Shown here: positions 663 to 11,189 of the stretch, one piece after another
How the letters are laid out: each line of letters begins with the position of its first letter
Position numbering within the stretch: position 1 is the stretch's first letter
DNA from: Chloroflexota bacterium
Lineage (GTDB): Bacteria; Chloroflexota; UBA11872
Assembly (NCBI GenBank): GCA_011523785.1
Contig: WTFW01000163.1
Coordinates: forward strand, 4,835 to 68,834
Direction: 5' to 3'
DNA: 64,000 bases
Notes under the pieces: model-generated
The model's input: only the letters and a program-made list of their open reading frames with translations
Told to the model about the DNA's origin: nothing
The model's database searches: none
Made by a program: the position numbers and the translations under genes

Positions 663-1022
663 ATGAAGCCCATTCGAGTCGGCGCGGCCGTCGTTCTGCT
701 GCTAGCCGTGGTGGCGTTACTGGCGCCATCGGTGGTGACGAGTGCGGCACCGGTGCTTGGGGTGGTGACGCCGCCCGGGCATGAGGGGCATGACCATATT
801 CACTTGCCGTGGACGCTGCCGGCGGCGGATGCGGAACGGGCGGATGGGACATCGGGGGAGTTCCCGGAGCAGTCGTCGCCGTTTCCGGTGGGGGTGATGC
901 CGGCGGTGCTGGTGGTGCTGCTGGCGGTGTGCATGTTTGAGCGGGTTGGATTCGATATTCGGCGGGTGCGGCTGACGGCCAATGGGCCGCCGCTGCCGCC
1001 GCCCCGGCTGGCCTTGCAGTAG
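663..1022 (+). CDS. Small exported/membrane protein with a His-rich motif (HEGHDHIH) and a C-terminal transmembrane helix. Possible metal-binding protein.
   Basis: N-terminal hydrophobic signal/TM segment (AAVVLLLAVVALLAPSVVTSA), then the motif HEGHDHIHLP, then a C-terminal hydrophobic stretch VMPAVLVVLLAVCMF. First gene of a same-strand run with 1097-2542 and 2472-4772. Confidence 0.5.
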   Translation: MKPIRVGAAVVLLLAVVALLAPSVVTSAAPVLGVVTPPGHEGHDHIHLPWTLPAADAERADGTSGEFPEQSSPFPVGVMPAVLVVLLAVCMFERVGFDIRRVRLTANGPPLPPPRLALQ

Positions 1023-1096: not shown

Positions 1097-2542
1097 TTGG
1101 CGCCGAAGCTGCGAGGTCTGTGTATGAGTTTCGGGAAAAGCCCGACGCGCCTTAGGCGCGGCCTGCTGGCCCTGGCCGTATCCGGGGCGGCACTGGCAGC
1201 GGCTGCGGGCATTGCGTGGGCGCACGAGGGCCGGGAGGTCCACGGGTTTACGTTTGACGTTGGGTTCCTGGTAGAGCCGGCGTATGAGGGTCAGCCGAAC
1301 GGGGTGTACCTGTCGGTGACGCGGGAGAGCGGCGTCGAGTCGGGCCACGGATCGGCCGGCGGGCACGATCACGGCGGAATGGTGGAGACCTCGGACATGT
1401 CGGTGGAGGTGACGGCGGAGGTCGACCCGATCGACGGGATCAACGTGCGCATCATGCCCAGCGGGTTTGCGTTCGCGCCGGAGCGGGTGAACCAGGCGGA
1501 CGTGGACGGCGAGGGGCACGCGCACGTTTACGTGGACGGCGAGAAGGTGGGCCGGGCCTACGGCGAATGGTTCCACCTGAAGGGTGTTGCGCCCGGGGAC
1601 CGCGAGATTCGCGTGACGCTGCAGACGAACGGCCATAGCGAATACGCGGTCGGCGGGCAGACGGTGGAGGCGGCGACGACACTCAGCGTTCCGGCAATGC
1701 CGCCGGCGCCGGAAGAGGTCGGGCAAGTTGAGGCGCCTGAAGGGATGGTCGTCGCAATCAGCCTGGAGCTGGATCCTGTGGGTGGGGCCAACCTGATGGT
1801 GATGCCGCAGGGGTTCACGATGGCTCCTGGGCAGGTCAATGCCCCGAATGTGGCAGGCGAAGGGCATCCGCATTTGTACGTGAACGGGGTGCGGCTGGGA
1901 CGGGTCTACAGTCCGTACCTGCACCTGGGGAAGCTGGCGCCGGGCATTAACGAGGTGCGGGTGACGTTGAATACGAACATGCACCAGGAGTACTCGCGCG
2001 ACGGAGAGACGATCGAAGCGGTAGCGACGATCCACATCCCGGCCGAAGGCGAAGTCCAGACGGATGACGGACACGGGGCCCGGGTTGGTGTCACGGGGCT
2101 GGCGAACAGCCTGGTGGTGGAGGTGACGCACCTGGCGGCGGACATGTCGGCCTCGGGCGTGGCGCGGCGGATGGCGCTGTCGCCGCTGCCGGGGGAGAGC
2201 GGCGGCTACGTGGCGCCGTTTATTCCAACGGTGCCGGGGCCGTACCGGTTCCGGTTTGTGGGGACGATTGACGGTTTGCCGGTCGACGAGACGTTCACGT
2301 CTGGTCCGGGCACGTTCGATGACGTGCGGTCGGCGACGGAGGCGCAGTTTCCGCGGCCGGTGCCGAGCGCGCGCGAGATTGCCGGGGTGGCCACCGCGGC
2401 GCAGTTGCAGGCGCGGGACGCATCGGACGCCTCGGCAACGGCGGTGACCGTTGCGGTTGCCGGGTTGGTGATTGGCGGGCTGGGGCTTGCAACCGGCGTT
2501 GGCCTGGCGTTGCATGCGTTCCGACGGCGTGGCGCGGGGTAG
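1097..2542 (+). CDS. Secreted protein with two tandem ~100-aa domains, each with a G-E-G-H-x-H-(V/L)-Y-V-(D/N)-G motif, plus a C-terminal TM anchor. Uncharacterised; possibly DUF4399-like metal-binding.
   Basis: Signal peptide ...AAAAGIAWA followed immediately by HEG. Internal repeat pairs: VRIMPSGFAFAPERVNQADVDGEGHAHVYVDG versus LMVMPQGFTMAPGQVNAPNVAGEGHPHLYVNG, and REIRVTLQTNGHSEY versus NEVRVTLNTNMHQEY. C-terminal hydrophobic helix VAVAGLVIGGLGLATGVGLAL. Confidence 0.55.
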   Translation: MAPKLRGLCMSFGKSPTRLRRGLLALAVSGAALAAAAGIAWAHEGREVHGFTFDVGFLVEPAYEGQPNGVYLSVTRESGVESGHGSAGGHDHGGMVETSDMSVEVTAEVDPIDGINVRIMPSGFAFAPERVNQADVDGEGHAHVYVDGEKVGRAYGEWFHLKGVAPGDREIRVTLQTNGHSEYAVGGQTVEAATTLSVPAMPPAPEEVGQVEAPEGMVVAISLELDPVGGANLMVMPQGFTMAPGQVNAPNVAGEGHPHLYVNGVRLGRVYSPYLHLGKLAPGINEVRVTLNTNMHQEYSRDGETIEAVATIHIPAEGEVQTDDGHGARVGVTGLANSLVVEVTHLAADMSASGVARRMALSPLPGESGGYVAPFIPTVPGPYRFRFVGTIDGLPVDETFTSGPGTFDDVRSATEAQFPRPVPSAREIAGVATAAQLQARDASDASATAVTVAVAGLVIGGLGLATGVGLALHAFRRRGAG

Positions 2543-4772
2543 TGCATGCGGCCCGCGGCGGGGGCCTGGGCTCCGCTGCGGGCGGCTGGCCCTGGCTGTC
2601 CTAGCCGCGTTGACGGCGCTGGCGCTGGTTGCGGCGCCGTCCGGGGCGCACGCCAACCTGGTGCGGTCGTCGCCGAGTCCAGGGACGGCGGTGGATCCCG
2701 CGCCGCCAGTGGTGTACGCGGAGTTCAGCGAGGCCATTGACCTGGGCTACAGCAGCCTGGAAGTACTGGACGCCAACGGGCAGCCGGTGACCACGGGTCC
2801 GACGGAGCCCGATCCGACTACTCCCACTGCGATGCTGGTGCCGGTGGGGGAGCTGGCGGACGGCACCTACGTGGTGGTGTGGCGGACGCTGTCGGTGGTG
2901 GACGGCCACGTGATTCGGGGGTCGTTTGCGTTTGGGGTGGGCGAGCCGGTGGCGGCGGACGTGGCGGTGGCGGTGGCGTCGATCGAGTCCAGTCCGGCGG
3001 CGGCGGTTTCGCGCTGGCTGCTGTTCGTGGGCGTGGCGGTGCTGATTGGTGGGCCGTTGCAGGCGCTGGTGCAGCGGCGCGGCGCTCAGCCGGAGCGGCG
3101 TCGGGTCGTGGAGCGGCGAACGGCGCTGCTGCTGCTGGGCGGCGGGTTGCTGGCGCTGGCGGGTCAGATCGGGTTGCTGGGGACGCAGATCCTGATCCTG
3201 GGCGGGGACTCGCTACTGGCGGGGTTTGGCGAGGTATTCAGGGCAGGGCAATGGGGCGCGCTTTGGATTGGCCGCACCGCGGCACTTGCTGTGGCGGTGG
3301 TGCTGGCCGACCAGGCGAGTTCGACGTCGGCGGGTGAGCGGCGCCAGGCGCTAGCGTTCGGCGGGGTGGCGGCGGCGGGCGTGGTGATGGCGACGAGCAT
3401 TTCGATGGGTAGCCACGCGGCGGCGCTGGTGGACGTGGGGCCGGCGCTGGTAGCCGACCTGATTCACCTGCTGGCGGTTGGCGCCTGGGTGGGCGGCCTG
3501 CCGGTGTTGCTGCTGGCGGCCTGGCAGGCGCGCGGGGCGAGAACCGGTGGAGCCGCGGCAGCCGATCTGATCGAGGTTGCGGCGCGATTCTCCGCCGTTG
3601 CGACAGTGGCCGTTGGGCTGATCGTGGTGACGGGCGCGTATAGCGCCTGGTTGCAGGTGGTGGAACCGGAGCGGTTGTGGCGTACGGCGTACGGGCTGCT
3701 GCTGGTGGTGAAGCTGGCACTGGTTGCGCCGCTGCTGGCGCTGGGCGGGGTGAACCTGGGGTGGACGCGGCCGCGGCTGGCGGGGGCTGGCGCGGCCGGG
3801 GCGCGTGCGGCGAGAGCGCTGCGGACGCTGGTGGTGGCTGAGATCGTGCTGGCGGCGGCCGTGCTTGCGGTGGTGGGCGTGCTCACGGAGCGGGAGCCGG
3901 CGCGGCAGGTCAGCGGCGACGTGCCGCTGGCGGTGGAGGGTGCCGGGGCAAGTGGCGACACGAGGGTTCGCGTGCGGGTGGCGCCGGGGCGGCCGGGCCC
4001 GAACACGCTGGAGGTTGACCTGTCGTCCCAGGACGGACGGGTCAACGACGCGGATGTTGAGTTGCAACTCAGGTATCTCGATACGGACCTGGGGACGACC
4101 GTTGAGCGTCCGGTGCGGACCGAGGAGGGGACGTTCGAGGCGGAGACCGATGCGTTCGCGCTGGCGGGGGCCTGGCAGGTGCTGGCGATCGTGCGGCAGC
4201 CGGGGGCGTTCGATGCGCGGGTGCCGGTGCGGCTGAACATCGGGTCTCCCACGGCGATTGGCGTAGCGGAAGTAGACGTGACGGTGGCGGTGCGGCTCTG
4301 GGGGCTGGCGCTGGCGGGGATGGGATTTGTGCTGGCGCTGGCCACGCTGGCCCGGCAGGGATGGGCGGCGCGGGTTCGCCAGGCGGGGACCGGAGCGGGA
4401 TTCGCGGCGATTCTGCTGGGGGCCGGGTTGCTGATCATCGGGCCGCAGCAGGGCGTGGCGCCGTCGGCGGTGAACCCGATTCGGCCGGATGATGCTTCAG
4501 TCAGCGCGGGTCGCGAGATCTTTGAGGCCGAGTGCGTGAGCTGTCACGGGCCGACAGGTCGCGGGGACGGTCCGCTGGCGGCGACGCTGGATCCGCCGCC
4601 GCTGGACCTGGTGATCCACGTGCCGCTGCATCCGGACGACGCGCTGTTTGGGTTTGTGTTCAACGGGATCGAGGGCACGGGGATGCCGGCGTTCGGGGAT
4701 CGCTATGGCGAACTGGATACGTGGCACATCATCAACTTTATCCAGACCCTGCCGGAAACGGCGCGGAGCTAG
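2472..4772 (+). CDS. Copper resistance/uptake-like fusion protein: CopC domain, CopD multi-TM domain, YtkA-like domain, and a C-terminal mono-haem cytochrome c domain. Likely start is ATG 2514 or nearby.
   Basis: CopC signature after the signal peptide (HANLVRSSPSPG...YVVVWRTLSVVDGHVIRGSFAFGV). A long polytopic hydrophobic region follows, typical of CopD. A YtkA-like beta-sandwich segment follows (TLEVDLSSQDGRVNDADVELQLRYLD...GAWQVLAIV). Then a TM helix and a CxxCH haem site (FEAECVSCHGPTGRGDG...GMPAFG) with a downstream Met ligand. Confidence 0.75.
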   Translation: MAGWGLQPALAWRCMRSDGVARGSACGPRRGPGLRCGRLALAVLAALTALALVAAPSGAHANLVRSSPSPGTAVDPAPPVVYAEFSEAIDLGYSSLEVLDANGQPVTTGPTEPDPTTPTAMLVPVGELADGTYVVVWRTLSVVDGHVIRGSFAFGVGEPVAADVAVAVASIESSPAAAVSRWLLFVGVAVLIGGPLQALVQRRGAQPERRRVVERRTALLLLGGGLLALAGQIGLLGTQILILGGDSLLAGFGEVFRAGQWGALWIGRTAALAVAVVLADQASSTSAGERRQALAFGGVAAAGVVMATSISMGSHAAALVDVGPALVADLIHLLAVGAWVGGLPVLLLAAWQARGARTGGAAAADLIEVAARFSAVATVAVGLIVVTGAYSAWLQVVEPERLWRTAYGLLLVVKLALVAPLLALGGVNLGWTRPRLAGAGAAGARAARALRTLVVAEIVLAAAVLAVVGVLTEREPARQVSGDVPLAVEGAGASGDTRVRVRVAPGRPGPNTLEVDLSSQDGRVNDADVELQLRYLDTDLGTTVERPVRTEEGTFEAETDAFALAGAWQVLAIVRQPGAFDARVPVRLNIGSPTAIGVAEVDVTVAVRLWGLALAGMGFVLALATLARQGWAARVRQAGTGAGFAAILLGAGLLIIGPQQGVAPSAVNPIRPDDASVSAGREIFEAECVSCHGPTGRGDGPLAATLDPPPLDLVIHVPLHPDDALFGFVFNGIEGTGMPAFGDRYGELDTWHIINFIQTLPETARS

Positions 4773-5251
4773 GCGCGGGCGCGGCGGCGGGCGGACCAGG
4801 TGTGGGCGGCGACGGCCGCGAAGAAGCCGCCGATGACCAGAACGCTGGGCACGACCCAGTTGGTGGGGGCCAGATCGAGCGAGTGCGAGAGTTTGGCGGG
4901 CCCGAGGGCGCTGGAGATGTCCAGGACGAGGTTCCAGTGGACTTCCTCGGGGCTTTGCTCGACGAATTCGTAGACGGAACCTGACTCAAAGGCCGTGTAT
5001 TGGGCGATGTTGACGCCGTTCTCGAAGACGGTCACGCGGACCTCGGCGCCGGGAATCCTGGCACCGGTAGAGACGTTGCGGAGGTCGACGGAGTAGTCGA
5101 GCCAGCCCTCGGCCCAGTTGGCAAAGGCGCGAACCTGGTAGGGGCCGGCGGCGCCGGTGTAGACGAGGTCGCCGCCGTGGGCCAGGACGGGTGTTGACGA
5201 CAGGGTAACGAGAGCTACAAGCACCGGCAGGAGGCGGGCGAAACCCCGCAT
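4769..5251 (-). CDS. Exported protein with His as the predicted first mature residue (HGGDLVYTG...) and a C-terminal TM anchor. CopC/YtkA-like beta-sandwich candidate.
   Basis: Signal peptide MRGFARLLPVLVALVTLSSTPVLA followed by H. C-terminal hydrophobic VVPSVLVIGGFFAAVAA plus basic tail. Its stop overlaps the stop of the converging 2472-4772 gene. Confidence 0.5.
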   Translation of the reverse strand: MRGFARLLPVLVALVTLSSTPVLAHGGDLVYTGAAGPYQVRAFANWAEGWLDYSVDLRNVSTGARIPGAEVRVTVFENGVNIAQYTAFESGSVYEFVEQSPEEVHWNLVLDISSALGPAKLSHSLDLAPTNWVVPSVLVIGGFFAAVAAHTWSARRRARA

Positions 5252-6225
5252 TAGTTCAGCGGCGGACCAGCCACGGCGGCGACGGCGGGTTCGAGTTCAA
5301 CCGCGCCGACCAGGCCCTCGAAGCGCGCGGCCACGCGCCCGGTAGAGTCGACCACGAAGACCCAGGGTTCGGTTTCGAGCTTCCACTCGCGGGCGGCGTC
5401 TGCCCATTCGAGGCGGCCCTCGGTGCGGGCGACAGCGAGATCGAAGGGCTCGATGTGGATGAAGCGCAGGCGGTCGCCAAAGTTTCGGGAGAGCTCGCCG
5501 ACGACGGCGGTAACAGGCCCGCACATGGCCGAGGTGCAGAACCCGGGGGTGCTGAAGGTCACCACCAACGGCTCGCGTCGGGCCAGCGCATCCGCGATTG
5601 AGTGATCGTAAAGAGCGGGGAGGGGCGGATCGGCGGTTGTCAGGGTTTCGAGGTTGAGTACGTCCCGGCTCGTGAGGTTAGCGAAGGCCGGCGCGGCGTC
5701 GCCGACGCGAGGAGCTGAGGTGCGGCGGCCGACCTGGAAGGCGGTCGACGTGGCGTAGGCCGAGCCGAAGGCTGGCTCCACTTCCAGGTCGGCGCGCCAG
5801 AGGCCTTCCTCGAAGTCGGCGTCGGCGACGAGGTAGTAGGAGCGCGATGCGTCGTGGACGTGGACGGCGCCGTCCGCGTGAACATGGTCGTAGCTGGCGC
5901 CGGCGACGTGCTCGCGGGCGGGCGCTTCGAAGCGAAACTCGTCGCGTTGACCGATCAGGCGGATGAAGCGCACGTTGATGTTCGCGCCGGTGACCAGCCC
6001 GCCGTCGCCGTCCACCAGGACGAAGGGAAAGCGGTGGGGTCCGGGGAGCATTTCGTTGACGGCGAGGAGGACGCTGATCCGGGGGTTGGTCGGCAGTTCG
6101 CCGCAGGCGGAAAGCCAAACGGCGAGTGCCGGGGCTCCAAGGGCCAGCACGCCGAGCAGCCTTCGTCTTGGTATCTCGCGTGCGTGGCGGGTCGGGGGCT
6201 GACTGAGAGGGTCGGGTCTGTCCAC
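5251..6225 (-). CDS. Tat-signal lipoprotein with an N-terminal His-containing beta domain and a C-terminal thioredoxin-fold (Sco/TlpA/redoxin-like) domain with a CTSAMC motif.
   Basis: RRRLLGV twin-arginine motif and lipobox LSAC. HVHADGAVHVHD His cluster. Thioredoxin-like block APAFANLTSRDVLNLETL...PLVVTFSTPGFCTSAMCGPVT. Start/stop overlap with 4769-5251 suggests an operon. Confidence 0.6.
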   Translation of the reverse strand: MDRPDPLSQPPTRHAREIPRRRLLGVLALGAPALAVWLSACGELPTNPRISVLLAVNEMLPGPHRFPFVLVDGDGGLVTGANINVRFIRLIGQRDEFRFEAPAREHVAGASYDHVHADGAVHVHDASRSYYLVADADFEEGLWRADLEVEPAFGSAYATSTAFQVGRRTSAPRVGDAAPAFANLTSRDVLNLETLTTADPPLPALYDHSIADALARREPLVVTFSTPGFCTSAMCGPVTAVVGELSRNFGDRLRFIHIEPFDLAVARTEGRLEWADAAREWKLETEPWVFVVDSTGRVAARFEGLVGAVELEPAVAAVAGPPLN

Positions 6226-6297: not shown

Positions 6298-6993
6298 ATG
6301 TCAGAGCCGCGGATTTCAGCCAGCGATCAGGACTACCTGCGGGCGATCTACGACGCGGGTGGGCACGAGCGGCGTGTGGGAACAGGTGAAGTCGCCGGTG
6401 AACTGAATCTGACGCAGGGGGCGGTGACATTCGCCTTGCAACGGCTGCATGAAAAGGGGCTGGTCAACTACCGGCGCTACCAGGGGGCGCGGCTGACCGA
6501 GGATGGCGAGCGCCACGCGCTGGAAATGGTGCGGCATCACAGGCTGATCGAACGTTTCCTGGTGGAGTTTCTGGACTACGACTGGAACGACGTGCACGAA
6601 GAGGCTGACCGGCTGGAGCATGTGATTTCGGAGGAAATGGAGCGACGAATTGCGGCCAAGGTGTCCGACCCGACGACCGACCCGCACGGGGACTCGATTC
6701 CCAACGAGGCGCTGGACGCGCTGCAGGCCGACGACGCCCGGCAGTTGACAGGGGTTGCGGACGGTACGGACTTTGTGGTGGCGCGGGTGCGGGACCGCGA
6801 CCGGGCGGTGCTGGAGTACCTGACGGAAATCCAGCTCGTACCGGGGACGGAGGCCAGCGTGGTCCGACGACTGCCGTTCGATGGACCGCTGGTGGTGCGC
6901 ATTGAGTCGGAAGAGGTGGCGCTGAGCCAGACGGTGAGCGACAGCGTGTTCATTCGCGACGCAGAGCGAGGTTCGAGTCCTCAGCGCAGCTGA
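6298..6993 (+). CDS. DtxR/IdeR/MntR-family metal-dependent transcriptional regulator with a C-terminal SH3-like (FeoA) domain.
   Basis: N-terminal wHTH (DYLRAIYDAGG...VAGELNLTQGAVTFALQRLHEKGLV), dimerisation/metal-site helix (RHHRLIERFLVEFLDYDWNDVHEEADRLEHVISEEMERRI), and a C-terminal FeoA-like beta domain. Confidence 0.9.
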   Translation: MSEPRISASDQDYLRAIYDAGGHERRVGTGEVAGELNLTQGAVTFALQRLHEKGLVNYRRYQGARLTEDGERHALEMVRHHRLIERFLVEFLDYDWNDVHEEADRLEHVISEEMERRIAAKVSDPTTDPHGDSIPNEALDALQADDARQLTGVADGTDFVVARVRDRDRAVLEYLTEIQLVPGTEASVVRRLPFDGPLVVRIESEEVALSQTVSDSVFIRDAERGSSPQRS

Positions 6994-7011: not shown

Positions 7012-8121
7012 CTAGCGGAGCGCGGCTTGTCGGGCGGCTTCGCGCCCCGCGGCGGTGAGGCGGAGCTGGTCGTTTTCGAGGTCGATGAGACCGCGTTCGG
7101 TGGCGGTGTGGACGACGCGGTTGGCGAATTCGGGGGGCCAGCGCATGTGGCGTTGCATGTGGTCGGGGCGGCTCTCGTCGGCCTCGGTGGGCGTGCCCTC
7201 GTGGGTGGCGAGGTGGATGAGCAACATCTGGCGGGCGAAGGTCCAGCGCTGGCGGCGGCGGCGACGGGCGGTTGCGACGAGGCCGCGCTGGGGGGCGAGA
7301 AACAGGACCAGGATGAAGGCGATGCCGACCACGGTGGCCATGGACCCGGCGATGCTGGCGTCCAACAGGCGAGCCAGCCAGTAGCCGCCGACGGCTGAGG
7401 CGGCGCCGATAACGACGCTGAGACCGAGCATGCGGGGCAGCCGGTCCGTGAGCAGGTAGGCGGCGGCCGGCGGACCGATCATGAGCGCGACGACCAGGAT
7501 CGATCCGACGGCGTCGAAGGCGCCGACGGCGGTGACCGATACCACCGCCATGAGACCGTAGTGGACAAGCGCGGGCGAGAAGCCGAGCGCGGCGGCCAGC
7601 GCGGGGTCGAAGGTGGCCAGCTTGAGTTCTTTAAAGAAGAGAGACGCGCCGGCAAGGTTGACCACCAGGATGGCGCCCATGACCCAAAGCGCAATCGGTC
7701 CCAGGTCCACCCCGAATGGCGCGAATCGGTTGAACGGCGCAAAGGCGATCTCGCCAAGTAGCACGACATCGCTGTCCAGATGAACGTTGCCGGCGAGGCT
7801 GGAGATCAGAATCACGGCGATAGAAAAGAGGGCGGGGAAGACGAGGCCGATGGCGGTGTCTTCGCGAACGAGACCGGTTCGGCTGACCATCTCGACGAGG
7901 ACCACCGTCAATAGCCCGACGAGGGCGGCGCCGAGGATGAGGACCGGCGAGTTGAGATCGGCGACGACAAAGAAGGCCAACACGATGCCGAGCAGCACGG
8001 TGTGGCTGATGGCATCGCTCATCATCGCCATGCGACGCAGCACCAGGAACGTGCCGGGGATTGCGCACGCGGCGGCGACGACAACGGCCACGAGCAGAAC
8101 GTCGATCTGGGCCGACGTCAT
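7012..8121 (-). CDS. ABC-3 family (Mn/Zn/Fe chelate) transporter permease with a C-terminal cytoplasmic DtxR-N-terminal-like winged-helix extension.
   Basis: Polytopic ABC-3 permease core. After the last TM the tail TFARQMLLIHLATHEGTPTEA...RVVHTATERGLIDLENDQLRLTAAGREAARQAAL aligns with the DtxR N-terminus (TEMYLRTIYELEEEGVTP...TVARMERDGLVVV...LQMTPTGR). Confidence 0.85.
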   Translation of the reverse strand: MTSAQIDVLLVAVVVAAACAIPGTFLVLRRMAMMSDAISHTVLLGIVLAFFVVADLNSPVLILGAALVGLLTVVLVEMVSRTGLVREDTAIGLVFPALFSIAVILISSLAGNVHLDSDVVLLGEIAFAPFNRFAPFGVDLGPIALWVMGAILVVNLAGASLFFKELKLATFDPALAAALGFSPALVHYGLMAVVSVTAVGAFDAVGSILVVALMIGPPAAAYLLTDRLPRMLGLSVVIGAASAVGGYWLARLLDASIAGSMATVVGIAFILVLFLAPQRGLVATARRRRRQRWTFARQMLLIHLATHEGTPTEADESRPDHMQRHMRWPPEFANRVVHTATERGLIDLENDQLRLTAAGREAARQAALR

Positions 8122-9251
8122 AGATCGGCGGACGGCGTACGCCGCAGTCGAGCCAACCGGTCGGCTTCAGCCAGGCCGCGGGGGGTCAGCGACCAGCCGC
8201 CGGCATCGTGCCGCTGGGCCAAGCCATCGGCGGCGAGTTCGCTGAGTGCGCGATCCACGAGGGCGCGACCGCGCACCGCATGCAGGGCGGCGATATCGTG
8301 CGGACGGGTGGCGTCTGAGCTGTGTTGCGCCGCGAGCGCCGCCAAGTCCGACATCACAGCTTCGAGCGCCAGGATTCGCTGGCTGCGCCAGGCGTGCATG
8401 CGGGTCCACACGAGGCCGCGGGCCGGCGCAACGAGCAGGGATACGACCACCAGACCAGTGGCGACCAGCACGATCGTGGGTCCGGTAGACGTCTGGGCCG
8501 TGGTGCTGATCAGCGCCCCCAGCACGCCGGCCGCAGCGCCGAACAGGGCGGAGAGCGTGACCATGACCCCGAGGCGGTTGGTCCACTGGCGGGCGGCGGC
8601 CCCTGGCGCCACGACCATCGCGCTCATCAGGACCACGCCGACGGTCTTGAGACCGACGACGATGGCGATGACGAGGAGGCTGGTGAGGAGCAAATCCAGG
8701 CGCCGGGTGGGCACTCCAAGCGTGGCGGCGAAGTCCGGATCGAAACTCAGCAGCTTGAACTCTTTCCAGAGCACCAGCACCCCGAGCAGACCGACGGCGC
8801 CGACCGATGCCATGGTGATGACATCGCTTTCGAGCATGGCGGCGGCCTGTCCGAACAGGAACTTGTCGAGCCCGGCCTTGCCGGCAGCGGGCCGTCGCTG
8901 GATGAAGGTCAGTACGACCAGCCCGGCGCCAAAGAAGACGCTCAGCATGAGGGCCATGGCGGTATCGGTCTTGACGCGGGAAGCGCGAATGATGCCGGCG
9001 ATGGCCACGGCTGCGAGCCAGCCGGTGAGGGCCGCGCCAATCATCAGCACCAGCGGCGCGCGGCTGCCGGTAATCAGGAAGGCCAGGGCGACCCCGGGCA
9101 GCGCGGCATGCGACATGGCGTCGCCGAGCAGAGCCTGGCGACGGAGCACGGCAAAGGCGCCGAGAGCGCCGCTGACGATGCCAAGGGCGGCGGAGCCCAG
9201 CGCGACGGTTCGCAGCGTGTAGTCCAGGGCCATGTCGCTCAGCACATCCAC
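8118..9251 (-). CDS. ABC-3 family metal transporter permease (second permease), also with a C-terminal DtxR-like winged-helix extension.
   Basis: Polytopic permease core. Tail ...ALSELAADGLAQRHDAGGWSLTPRGLAEADRLARLRR resembles the DtxR wHTH wing and the start of the RKHRL helix. It has a 4-nt overlap with the downstream permease. Confidence 0.85.
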   Translation of the reverse strand: MDVLSDMALDYTLRTVALGSAALGIVSGALGAFAVLRRQALLGDAMSHAALPGVALAFLITGSRAPLVLMIGAALTGWLAAVAIAGIIRASRVKTDTAMALMLSVFFGAGLVVLTFIQRRPAAGKAGLDKFLFGQAAAMLESDVITMASVGAVGLLGVLVLWKEFKLLSFDPDFAATLGVPTRRLDLLLTSLLVIAIVVGLKTVGVVLMSAMVVAPGAAARQWTNRLGVMVTLSALFGAAAGVLGALISTTAQTSTGPTIVLVATGLVVVSLLVAPARGLVWTRMHAWRSQRILALEAVMSDLAALAAQHSSDATRPHDIAALHAVRGRALVDRALSELAADGLAQRHDAGGWSLTPRGLAEADRLARLRRTPSADL

Positions 9252-10069: not shown

Positions 10070-11044
10070 CTATGCCTTCCGCAGCGCCGCGACGATGGTG
10101 TCGATGTTGTGGCGAATCATGCCGAGATAGGTGCCTTCCTCGGTGCCCTCCGCGCCCATGGCGTCGGAGAAAATCTCGCCGCCGATCGTCACGGTGTGAC
10201 CGCGGGCGGCGGCGGCCTCGATGACTGCCTGCACGCCCTGATCAGGCACCGACGACTCGATGAAGACCGCCGGGATCCCACGCTCGCTGATAAAACGCGC
10301 CAGCTCCTGCACGTCGGCCGTGCTGGCCTCGCTCTCGGTGCTGATGCCCTGCAGGCCGCGCACCTGCATGCCGTAGCGGTTGGCGAAGTAGTTGAAGGCG
10401 TCGTGGGCGGTGATGAGGACGCGCACACGTTCTTCGATTTCCTGCGCGCGCGCCTTGACATACATGTCCAGTTCGGCGATCTCGGCGATGTAGGCGGCGG
10501 CATTGGCGCGGTAGGCCTCGGCTCCCTCGGGGTCCATGGCGACCAGGGCGTCGCGGATGGATTCGACCGCCGTCGACCAGAGGTCCAGGTCAAACCAGAC
10601 GTGTGGGTCGTAGGCGCCGTCGAACTCGGGCGGAGCCAGGAGGCGGGTCCGGTCAATGTGGTCGGTTACGCGGATGGAATGGACACCGAGATCGACCATG
10701 CGTTCAAGGACGCCGGACATGCCGGCTTCCAGGTGCAGGCCGTTCCAGAAGACGGCGTCGGCCGATTCGAGGCGGGTAATGTCGCTTTCGCTGGCCCGGT
10801 AGAGGTGGGGGTCAACACCGCTGCCCATGAGGCCCTGGACCTCCACGCGGTCGCCGCCGACGTGGCGCACGGCGTCGGCAATCTGGCCAATGGTTGCGAC
10901 AACGCGTAGCGGGCGGCCGTCCGCGAGATCGACGGGCGCCGGCTTGCTCGCGGCTGGGACTGATTCGCCGGCCGCATCGGTCTCGCAGGCCGCCAACGCC
11001 AAGACGGCCAGCAGTAACCCGGCCACCAGCGCCACCGTCCGCAC
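10070..11044 (-). CDS. Metal ABC transporter substrate-binding lipoprotein (TroA/ZnuA/MntC cluster 9 family). The track ORF extends to 11083 via TTG; a GTG start at 11044 gives a clean lipoprotein signal.
   Basis: [20 protein letters not shown] lipobox. Family blocks [26 protein letters not shown] and [15 protein letters not shown]. It has a 4-nt overlap with the ATPase gene. Confidence 0.88.
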
Positions 11045-11189
11045 TTCTGACCCTTTCACCTGTTGGACACTGCGCAAACTCAAAGAGCGCGCCGCTTTAC
11101 AGGCACCCTGTAATCCAACTTCGCTTATCTAAACAAAAGTTTTGAGCCAGGTCAAACCAGCCGAGATGTGCGAGCGACCTGGACGATTG

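Follow-up and report, generated by a model that had tools for sequence, protein, structure and literature searches.

Copper import in bacteria is poorly understood. To our knowledge, there is one well-studied partner of the CopC-CopD (CopCD) importers, YcnI, and it was characterized only from 2021 to 2026. YcnI of Bacillus subtilis has a signal peptide, binds Cu(II) with its N-terminal His27 and with Glu50, ends with a C-terminal transmembrane helix, and is encoded together with the CopC-CopD-YtkA importer YcnJ (PMC8424229). YcnI and the CopC domain of YcnJ exchange Cu(II), and both proteins aid growth when copper is limiting (PMC12362106, PMC13344008). The canonical Cu(II) ligand pattern of the CopC family, to which CrdA belongs, has also been described (PMC9182242). 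Here, we analyzed a gene at 1124..2542 in a 64,000-nt stretch of DNA from an uncultured Chloroflexota bacterium (contig WTFW01000163.1; the whole stretch is called the window). The encoded protein is best read as membrane-anchored with type-I topology, exposed on the outer side of the cytoplasmic membrane, and as an analogue of YcnI that is unrelated in sequence. Its most likely function, which we consider probable, would be the capture of copper and its exchange with the adjacent CopCD importer.

The layout is predicted to match that of YcnI: a signal peptide precedes a mature chain that starts with His, continues with a beta domain on the extracytoplasmic side, and ends with a C-terminal transmembrane segment. 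The gene also lies beside CopC-CopD. The two proteins differ in several respects. The window protein had no Pfam match to YcnI/DUF1775 (PF07987), and it therefore belongs to a different sequence family. The gene is located upstream of CopCD, whereas ycnI is located downstream of its partner. In the window protein, a loop of the scaffold is interrupted by the His-rich linker and the DUF4399-like domains, an insertion that YcnI does not have. No counterparts of the YcnI ligands Glu50 and Trp137 were identified.

Linkage to CopC-CopD and the split scaffold domain

The open reading frame (ORF) extends on the forward strand over 1097..2542, and its longest version begins at TTG 1097 and encodes 481 amino acids (aa). 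Residues of the repeats and motifs, including H141, H143, and H180 of the first repeat, are numbered according to this version. The true start is likely ATG 1124, which has a GAGG motif 8 nt upstream. The product from this start has 472 aa, and a database protein of 472 aa is 100% identical to it. The 236 homologues that were found are all without a protein name and all stem from metagenome-assembled genomes of Chloroflexota. An alignment of 57 homologues (A1) was the source of the residue conservation counts. For the analysis of gene order, 80 loci from species-representative genomes were sampled, 59 of which had the full architecture; 58 of these 59 included the downstream DNA.

In 56 of the 58 loci, the next gene downstream on the same strand encodes a CopC-CopD-cytochrome c protein. 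This linkage persists to about 36% identity, and the distant homologues have no other flanking genes in common. In the window, the start of the fusion gene lies within the 3′ end of the gene under study. Pfam matches to CopD (E 1e-22), CopC (2e-18), Cytochrome_CBB3 (1e-10), and YtkA (0.002) were obtained for its product. The CopC domain begins with HANL, directly after the Ala at the predicted cleavage site, and carries V-D-G-H, which is the canonical Cu(II) site pattern. Most Chloroflexota relatives have the cytochrome c part, and at least one (L086) does not. A heme domain on a copper importer suggests that Cu(II) reduction is coupled to import or that copper is delivered to an oxidase.

At the predicted A-x-A-type end of the signal peptide, the positions −3 and −1 are occupied by small residues in all 57 aligned homologues, and a His follows directly in 57 of 57. 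Cleavage of the signal peptide would expose this His as the N-terminal residue. At the other end of the protein, the full-length structure model (predicted local distance difference test score, pLDDT, 83.6) contains a long helix at residues 416–471. The hydrophobic stretch of aa 449–475, which is followed by RRR, fits a membrane anchor and is consistent with the transmembrane anchor that had been proposed in an earlier interpretation of the letters alone (the sequence-only reading).

The scaffold is made up of two conserved segments, the initial 35 residues of the mature protein and a stretch of about 95 residues that follows the second repeat. E51 was found in 57, E55 in 56, and H336 in 54 of the 57 homologues, and E333 is invariant or nearly so. 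The N-terminal segment was modeled as three strands with a pLDDT of about 90. A profile of both segments joined (A3, from 18 homologues) was used to search a collection of 5.8 billion proteins and retrieved 913 proteins. The best matches had 200–240 aa and were covered in one local alignment with 98–100% query cover and 42–55% identity, and 116 of the 120 listed matches spanned nearly the full profile in one piece. These basal scaffold proteins have no repeats. They consist of a signal peptide, the scaffold domain beginning with HEGR directly after the Ala of the cleavage site, a helix, and a transmembrane anchor, and they are also encoded directly upstream of CopC-CopD. The two segments are contiguous in the short proteins, and therefore, the scaffold is, judged from the alignments, one domain that is split by a loop insertion composed of the His-rich linker and the two repeats. 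The sequence-only reading had described a third, YtkA/CopC-like beta domain in series with the repeats. A beta domain is indeed present, but it is the second part of the split domain and not a separate module. The proposed kinship was not recovered: comparison of A3 with the CopC domains of the neighboring gene (profile A5) yielded an hhalign probability of 0.2%, Pfam CopC (PF04234) was not matched, and profile comparison with the YtkA-like domains of the cluster itself was negative.

In structure, the scaffold may be a CopC/CrdA-like beta sandwich. The structural matches to the scaffold were absent from the top 60 of a search with the repeats only, and their aligned length exceeds that of a repeat or of the C-terminal segment, indicating that they represent the composite of the N- and C-terminal segments. 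The feature shared with the CopC family (CrdA of Helicobacter pylori, PDB 9ll2; CopC of Methylosinus trichosporium, 5icu) is the N-terminal His after cleavage of the signal peptide. In contrast to that family, the window scaffold has no D-x-H at a comparable place, is split by an insertion of 250 aa, and is membrane-anchored. H336 is a candidate for the second His of the N-terminal-His site. The scaffold family had no Pfam match above threshold, and the PDB profile search with A3 gave only chance-level matches and thus no solved relative. Faint matches to YtkA (PF13115) were obtained for two scaffold-family members (P0293, 17.3 bits; one of 18 sequences, E 0.042; E values of 0.008–0.04), all below the Pfam threshold of 25.9 bits. 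Domains of this YtkA/CtaK-like type occur in the neighboring CopCD protein and in nearby genes.

The content of the scaffold loop is variable. The linker comprises 20–196 aa in the homologues, with 12.5% His and 26% Asp plus Glu. The number of repeats ranges from 0 to 2, and other lineages have short His- or Met-rich loops or a single repeat (8 of 59 loci). In four loci (L092:3508-4275, L096:4467-5300, L098, and L101), the loop is occupied by another, unrelated insert of roughly 130 aa, which contains IPWHSH or IPYHVH as well as a V-x-W-x-N...T-x-SG segment. Two of these four sequences weakly matched Cupredoxin_1 (E 0.012–0.02), and the term cupredoxin-like is to be taken as a hint for this insert. 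The site of insertion resembles a hot spot at which modules are swapped. A metagenome scan with the scaffold profile yielded only 16 loci, many of them short.

The inserted repeats and their relation to DUF4399

The sequence-only reading had noticed an internal duplication of about 100 aa, with a G-E-G-H-x-H-(V/L)-Y-V-(D/N)-G motif and a following VTLxTNxHxEY block in each copy. All three elements were confirmed. In a self-comparison, residues 101–200 and 217–316 aligned without gaps and were 49% identical and 69% similar (BLASTP E 3e-37). The motif reads GEGHAHVYVDG at aa 138–148 (nt 1508–1540) and GEGHPHLYVNG at aa 254–264 (nt 1856–1888), and each repeat contains H-x-H and a later N-x-H. The motif is kept among homologues as far as about 36% identity. 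In repeat 1, the three histidines of H-x-H...H were conserved in 55, 57, and 56 of the 57 homologues, respectively; in repeat 2, conservation was looser (48, 44, and 52). In the single-repeat variants, the His triad was intact in every one. Each repeat was modeled as a seven-strand beta sandwich that can be superposed on FN3 domains, and the fold is thus predicted to be FN3-like. A PDB sequence-profile search with the repeat profile A2 returned only chance-level matches. A Foldseek search of the full model against the PDB found only generic tandem immunoglobulin (Ig)/FN3 proteins and was uninformative.

The repeats had also been tentatively assigned to DUF4399 (PF14347), with a HMMER search against Pfam proposed as a check. 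This search did not yield direct support. Neither the protein nor the repeats reached the gathering threshold of 28 bits, and PF14347 was matched neither by the whole protein (E<=1) nor by the isolated repeats (E<=10). The only match of the protein and the repeats in Pfam was a sub-threshold one to DUF2846, and NCBIfam gave nothing for the protein or pieces of it. At the superfamily level, however, the assignment held. Profile A2, built from 30 repeats, was searched against 1.84 billion representative proteins and matched 2,333 representative clusters at E<=1e-3, of which 1,630 passed E<=1e-10. Most of the matched proteins contain two repeats, and some contain 4–10. Multi-repeat proteins from this search matched PF14347 directly (P0123, E 3e-42; P0122, E 2e-23). 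From such proteins, 24 repeats were excised to build profile A4; 22 of the 24 individually matched PF14347 at E<=0.01 (best 2.7e-8), mostly under the gathering score. A2 and A4 aligned over 86 columns with an hhalign probability of 99.5% (E 4e-22), and the GxGHxH and NxH motifs were in register. The invariant residues of A4 are three glycines, one leucine, one asparagine, and three histidines, and nothing else; they include G38, G40, H41, H43, N79, and H81 (A4 columns). The signature G-x-G-H-x-H...N-x-H drawn from the PF14347-positive repeats is present in both window repeats. Because their profile aligns with that of repeats that match PF14347, the window repeats are assigned by profile comparison to a divergent branch of the DUF4399 superfamily, a large branch that is separate from DUF4399 proper and remains under the Pfam threshold.

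The repeat also occurs without the scaffold. Of the 80 loci, 21 have no scaffold segments; one of these (L041) is the full form truncated at a contig end. The other 20 encode two-repeat proteins, most with a lipobox and His-rich linkers and often with a His-rich tail, and six of them begin with a cupredoxin-like domain (for L069, Pfam Cu-oxidase_2 with 21.5 bits and Cupredoxin_1 with E 9e-4). The linkers of repeat proteins contain much His and, in some cases, much Met. At the GC content of the repeat-only lipoprotein loci, ORF calling was too noisy to define their gene context beyond a small upstream protein.

The search with A2 also retrieved P0121, a protein of 801 aa with four window-type repeats and His-rich linkers. 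Its N-terminus looks cupredoxin-like by eye, without a cupredoxin match in Pfam, and its PEFG-type C-terminal sorting signal looks archaeal. The repeat family may thus extend to the ammonia-oxidizing archaea, organisms that depend on copper. On Sulfitobacter plasmids, a single repeat is joined to PCuAC (PF04314, 34.6 bits). The protein from a plasmid of Sulfitobacter sp. M368 (L083:6590-7279, WP_259943695.1) has 229 aa, is annotated as copper chaperone PCu(A)C, and comprises PCuAC and, at its C-terminus, a DUF4399-like domain (GEGHAHIYLNG...NSHDH). PCuAC is absent from the window protein. Related single-domain proteins are encoded on plasmids of Labrenzia/Roseibium, Leisingera, and Loktanella. 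The PCuAC fusion points to the same extracytoplasmic copper pathway.

Metal coordination by the HxH histidines, which the sequence-only reading had suggested, is plausible because the His triad is invariant over distant branches, the linkers are His-rich, the repeat is fused to PCuAC and cupredoxin-like domains, and the gene is linked to CopCD.

Proposed copper partner function and competing explanations

Several observations point to a role as a copper partner of the importer: in 56 of 58 loci, a CopC-CopD-cytochrome c gene follows directly in the same orientation; the basal scaffold proteins also sit upstream of CopC-CopD; the N-terminal His is invariant and preceded by small residues at −3 and −1; the His triad is invariant in distant DUF4399 repeats and found in 55–57 of 57 homologues in repeat 1; the repeat is fused elsewhere to PCuAC and cupredoxin-like domains; and YcnI, which shares its topology and genomic partner with the window protein, provides a precedent. 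From these observations, we infer metal binding, copper as the metal, and its transfer. The following mechanism would be in congruence with them. Signal-peptide cleavage would expose the invariant N-terminal His on the putatively CopC/CrdA-like scaffold. Inserted in one loop of this scaffold are a flexible linker rich in His, Asp, and Glu and the two FN3-like repeats of the DUF4399 superfamily, both of which present His-x-His and a third His. The linker and the His-triad domains would capture copper from the environment, and the N-terminal-His site would hold Cu(II), as in CopC and YcnI. The copper would then be exchanged with the N-terminal-His/Asp-x-His site of the importer's CopC domain, and the protein would in this way feed or buffer copper import.

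Several results weigh against this assignment. Two loci, L037 and L049, have no CopCD within 8 kb and are true exceptions. Sequence comparisons did not relate the scaffold to CopC, YtkA, or DUF1775, and its structural matches to P19 and Tp34 would also be compatible with iron or another metal. As to the repeats, PF14347 is not matched directly, their fold matches are generic FN3 domains, and the HxH of repeat 2 is missing in about 20% of the homologues. In the literature on DUF4399, DUF6130, DUF2846, and PF14347, a functional study was not found, and the characterization of DUF4399 was termed scarce by a 2026 preprint. Lastly, a Mn/Zn-type ABC importer and a DtxR-family regulator are encoded near the copper cluster in the window.

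A first alternative is that the protein scavenges or buffers another metal (iron, zinc, or nickel), either like the Ig-like periplasmic metal-binding proteins of the P19/FtrA/Tp34 family or as a general sponge for divalent metals by means of the His-rich linker and the His triads. Copper specificity does not follow from three-His sites or from linkers rich in His, Asp, and Glu, and the DtxR-family regulator and the ZnuA/ABC-3 importer are only 4–9 kb away. However, this Mn/Zn cluster is not kept beside distant homologues, and the conserved neighbor is CopC-CopD instead of an Ftr1-type permease or a Znu system. In addition, the fusion partners of the repeat are copper-protein families (PCuAC, cupredoxin-like), sequence similarity to P19/FtrA/Tp34/HftA, which bind copper and iron in the periplasm, was not detected, and the P19 family had no Pfam match in the window protein or the scaffold relatives. 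We therefore regard another metal as unlikely.

A second alternative is that the repeats are structural FN3-like spacers that keep the scaffold at a distance from the membrane or wall, and that their histidines stabilize the fold and bind no metal. The variation of the repeat number from 0 to 2 and the degenerate HxH of repeat 2 in some lineages would be in agreement with such a role. Yet, besides glycines and one leucine, only the three His and one Asn are invariant in very distant repeats, a pattern that plain spacers do not have. Every single-repeat form has the intact triad, and the domain is found again in lipoproteins with His-rich tails and in fusions to PCuAC or cupredoxin-like domains. 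Moreover, the repeats are inserted in the scaffold loop, not between the scaffold and the membrane anchor, and therefore cannot act as a stalk. Taken together, a spacer role of the repeats is quite improbable.

H-x-H on a beta strand with a distal His recalls Cu,Zn superoxide dismutase (SOD1) and carbonic anhydrase. A redox-active copper protein, acting either in cupric reduction together with the cytochrome c domain or through a center like that of copper-only SOD, would fit this resemblance of an Ig-like sandwich to SOD and the cytochrome c domain at the end of the partner in most lineages, but it is very improbable, as there was no SOD or oxidoreductase among the sequence or fold matches, a fourth ligand or bridging His is not conserved, the repeat-less basal scaffold family keeps the CopCD linkage, and L086 has a CopC-CopD without cytochrome c.

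The copper partner role would add an unrelated family in a YcnI-like genomic and topological position across a whole phylum, and thus a second family of CopCD partners. Accessory Cu(II)-holding proteins may then be a general requirement of CopCD importers. DUF4399 comprises thousands of sequence clusters in bacteria and probably in archaea, and a three-His metal site tied to copper trafficking would be the first testable function for a DUF4399-type domain. More tentatively, and as a possibility that we would not rate as even, the protein may combine two undescribed copper-binding modules, a CopC-fold N-terminal-His family and a DUF4399 three-His FN3-like site, with the loop serving to swap modules. 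If this is true, the N-terminal-His scaffold family would be the standard extracytoplasmic CopCD partner in Chloroflexota, and its loop would be a docking point that holds nothing, His/Met-rich loops, one or two DUF4399-like domains, or the other HxH insert.

Coordinates and neighboring genes

Table 1. Parts of the gene under study and neighboring features, with positions in the window
Feature	Position	Strand	Basis
Gene under study	1124..2542	+	ORF list, self-comparison, database match, start-site inspection
Predicted signal peptide ending A-W-A, cut before His	1124..1222	+	Hydrophobic helix in model
Putative scaffold, first part: N-terminal His (codon 1223-1225), HEGR, EPAYEG motif; three beta strands	1223..1327	+	Conservation, model
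Disordered His-rich linker (SGVESGHGSAGGHDHGGMVETSD)	1328..1396	+	pLDDT below 50
Repeat 1, predicted DUF4399-related FN3-like domain; N-G-H at aa 178-180	1397..1696	+	Sequence, profiles, alignment
Repeat 2, predicted DUF4399-related FN3-like domain; N-M-H at aa 294-296	1745..2044	+	Sequence, profiles, model, alignment
Putative scaffold, second part: VEVTH, IPTxPGxYxFxFxG, DETF, FDD, QFP	2075..2359	+	Alignment, model, joined-profile search
Predicted helical stalk and C-terminal transmembrane anchor (aa 449-475), then RRR	2360..2521	+	Model, sequence
CopC-CopD-(weak YtkA-like)-cytochrome c fusion	2514..4772	+	Pfam; start ATG 2514 or GTG 2529; four-part region 2472-4772
Small membrane protein, 119 aa: N-terminal transmembrane segment, GHEGHDHIH, C-terminal PPR	663..1022	+	ORF list
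Membrane-anchored protein, 160 aa, predicted N-terminal His (cut between VLA and HGGD)	4769..5251	-	ORF list; conserved in close relatives
Predicted lipoprotein, 324 aa: His-rich stretch (HVHADGAVHVHD), C-terminal TPGFCTSAMCGP motif	5251..6225	-	ORF list
DtxR-family regulator with FeoA domain	6298-6993		Pfam
Two ABC-3 permeases	7012-9251	-	Pfam
ZnuA-type binding protein	10070-11083	-	Pfam

The small His-motif membrane protein is encoded directly upstream on the same strand in 65 of the 80 loci, including the loci of repeat-only lipoproteins, and in the lipoprotein loci that have it, CopCD is not nearby. In the relatives, its His motif is HxH followed by V or I, with a C-terminal PPR (examples are L001:6903-7304, L002:7471-7884, L056:7320-7730, and L062:7347-7733). 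The Dehalococcoidia counterparts had no family in Pfam. The small protein of the window is weakly similar to these counterparts, and the equivalence is judged from where the gene lies, the presence of H-x-H, and the terminal PPR.

Two convergent genes, for the 160-aa and the 324-aa proteins, are common to close relatives. The counterpart of the 160-aa protein in L001 had a faint YtkA match. Counting the CopC domain, the cluster encodes three proteins that are predicted to start with His. The 324-aa lipoprotein, which itself had no match in Pfam, was read from its sequence as thioredoxin-fold or peroxiredoxin-like. Similar ORFs adjoin the relatives in L027, L058, L060, and L066, and AhpC-TSA/Redoxin fragments were found in L001 and L085.

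Over the whole window (1–64000), the GC skew is 0.18–0.25 in the first 20 kb, about 0 in the middle, and falls to −0.17 at 52–56 kb, and the cumulative skew has its maximum at about 34–46 kb. This pattern may reflect a gene-strand bias or a replication landmark.

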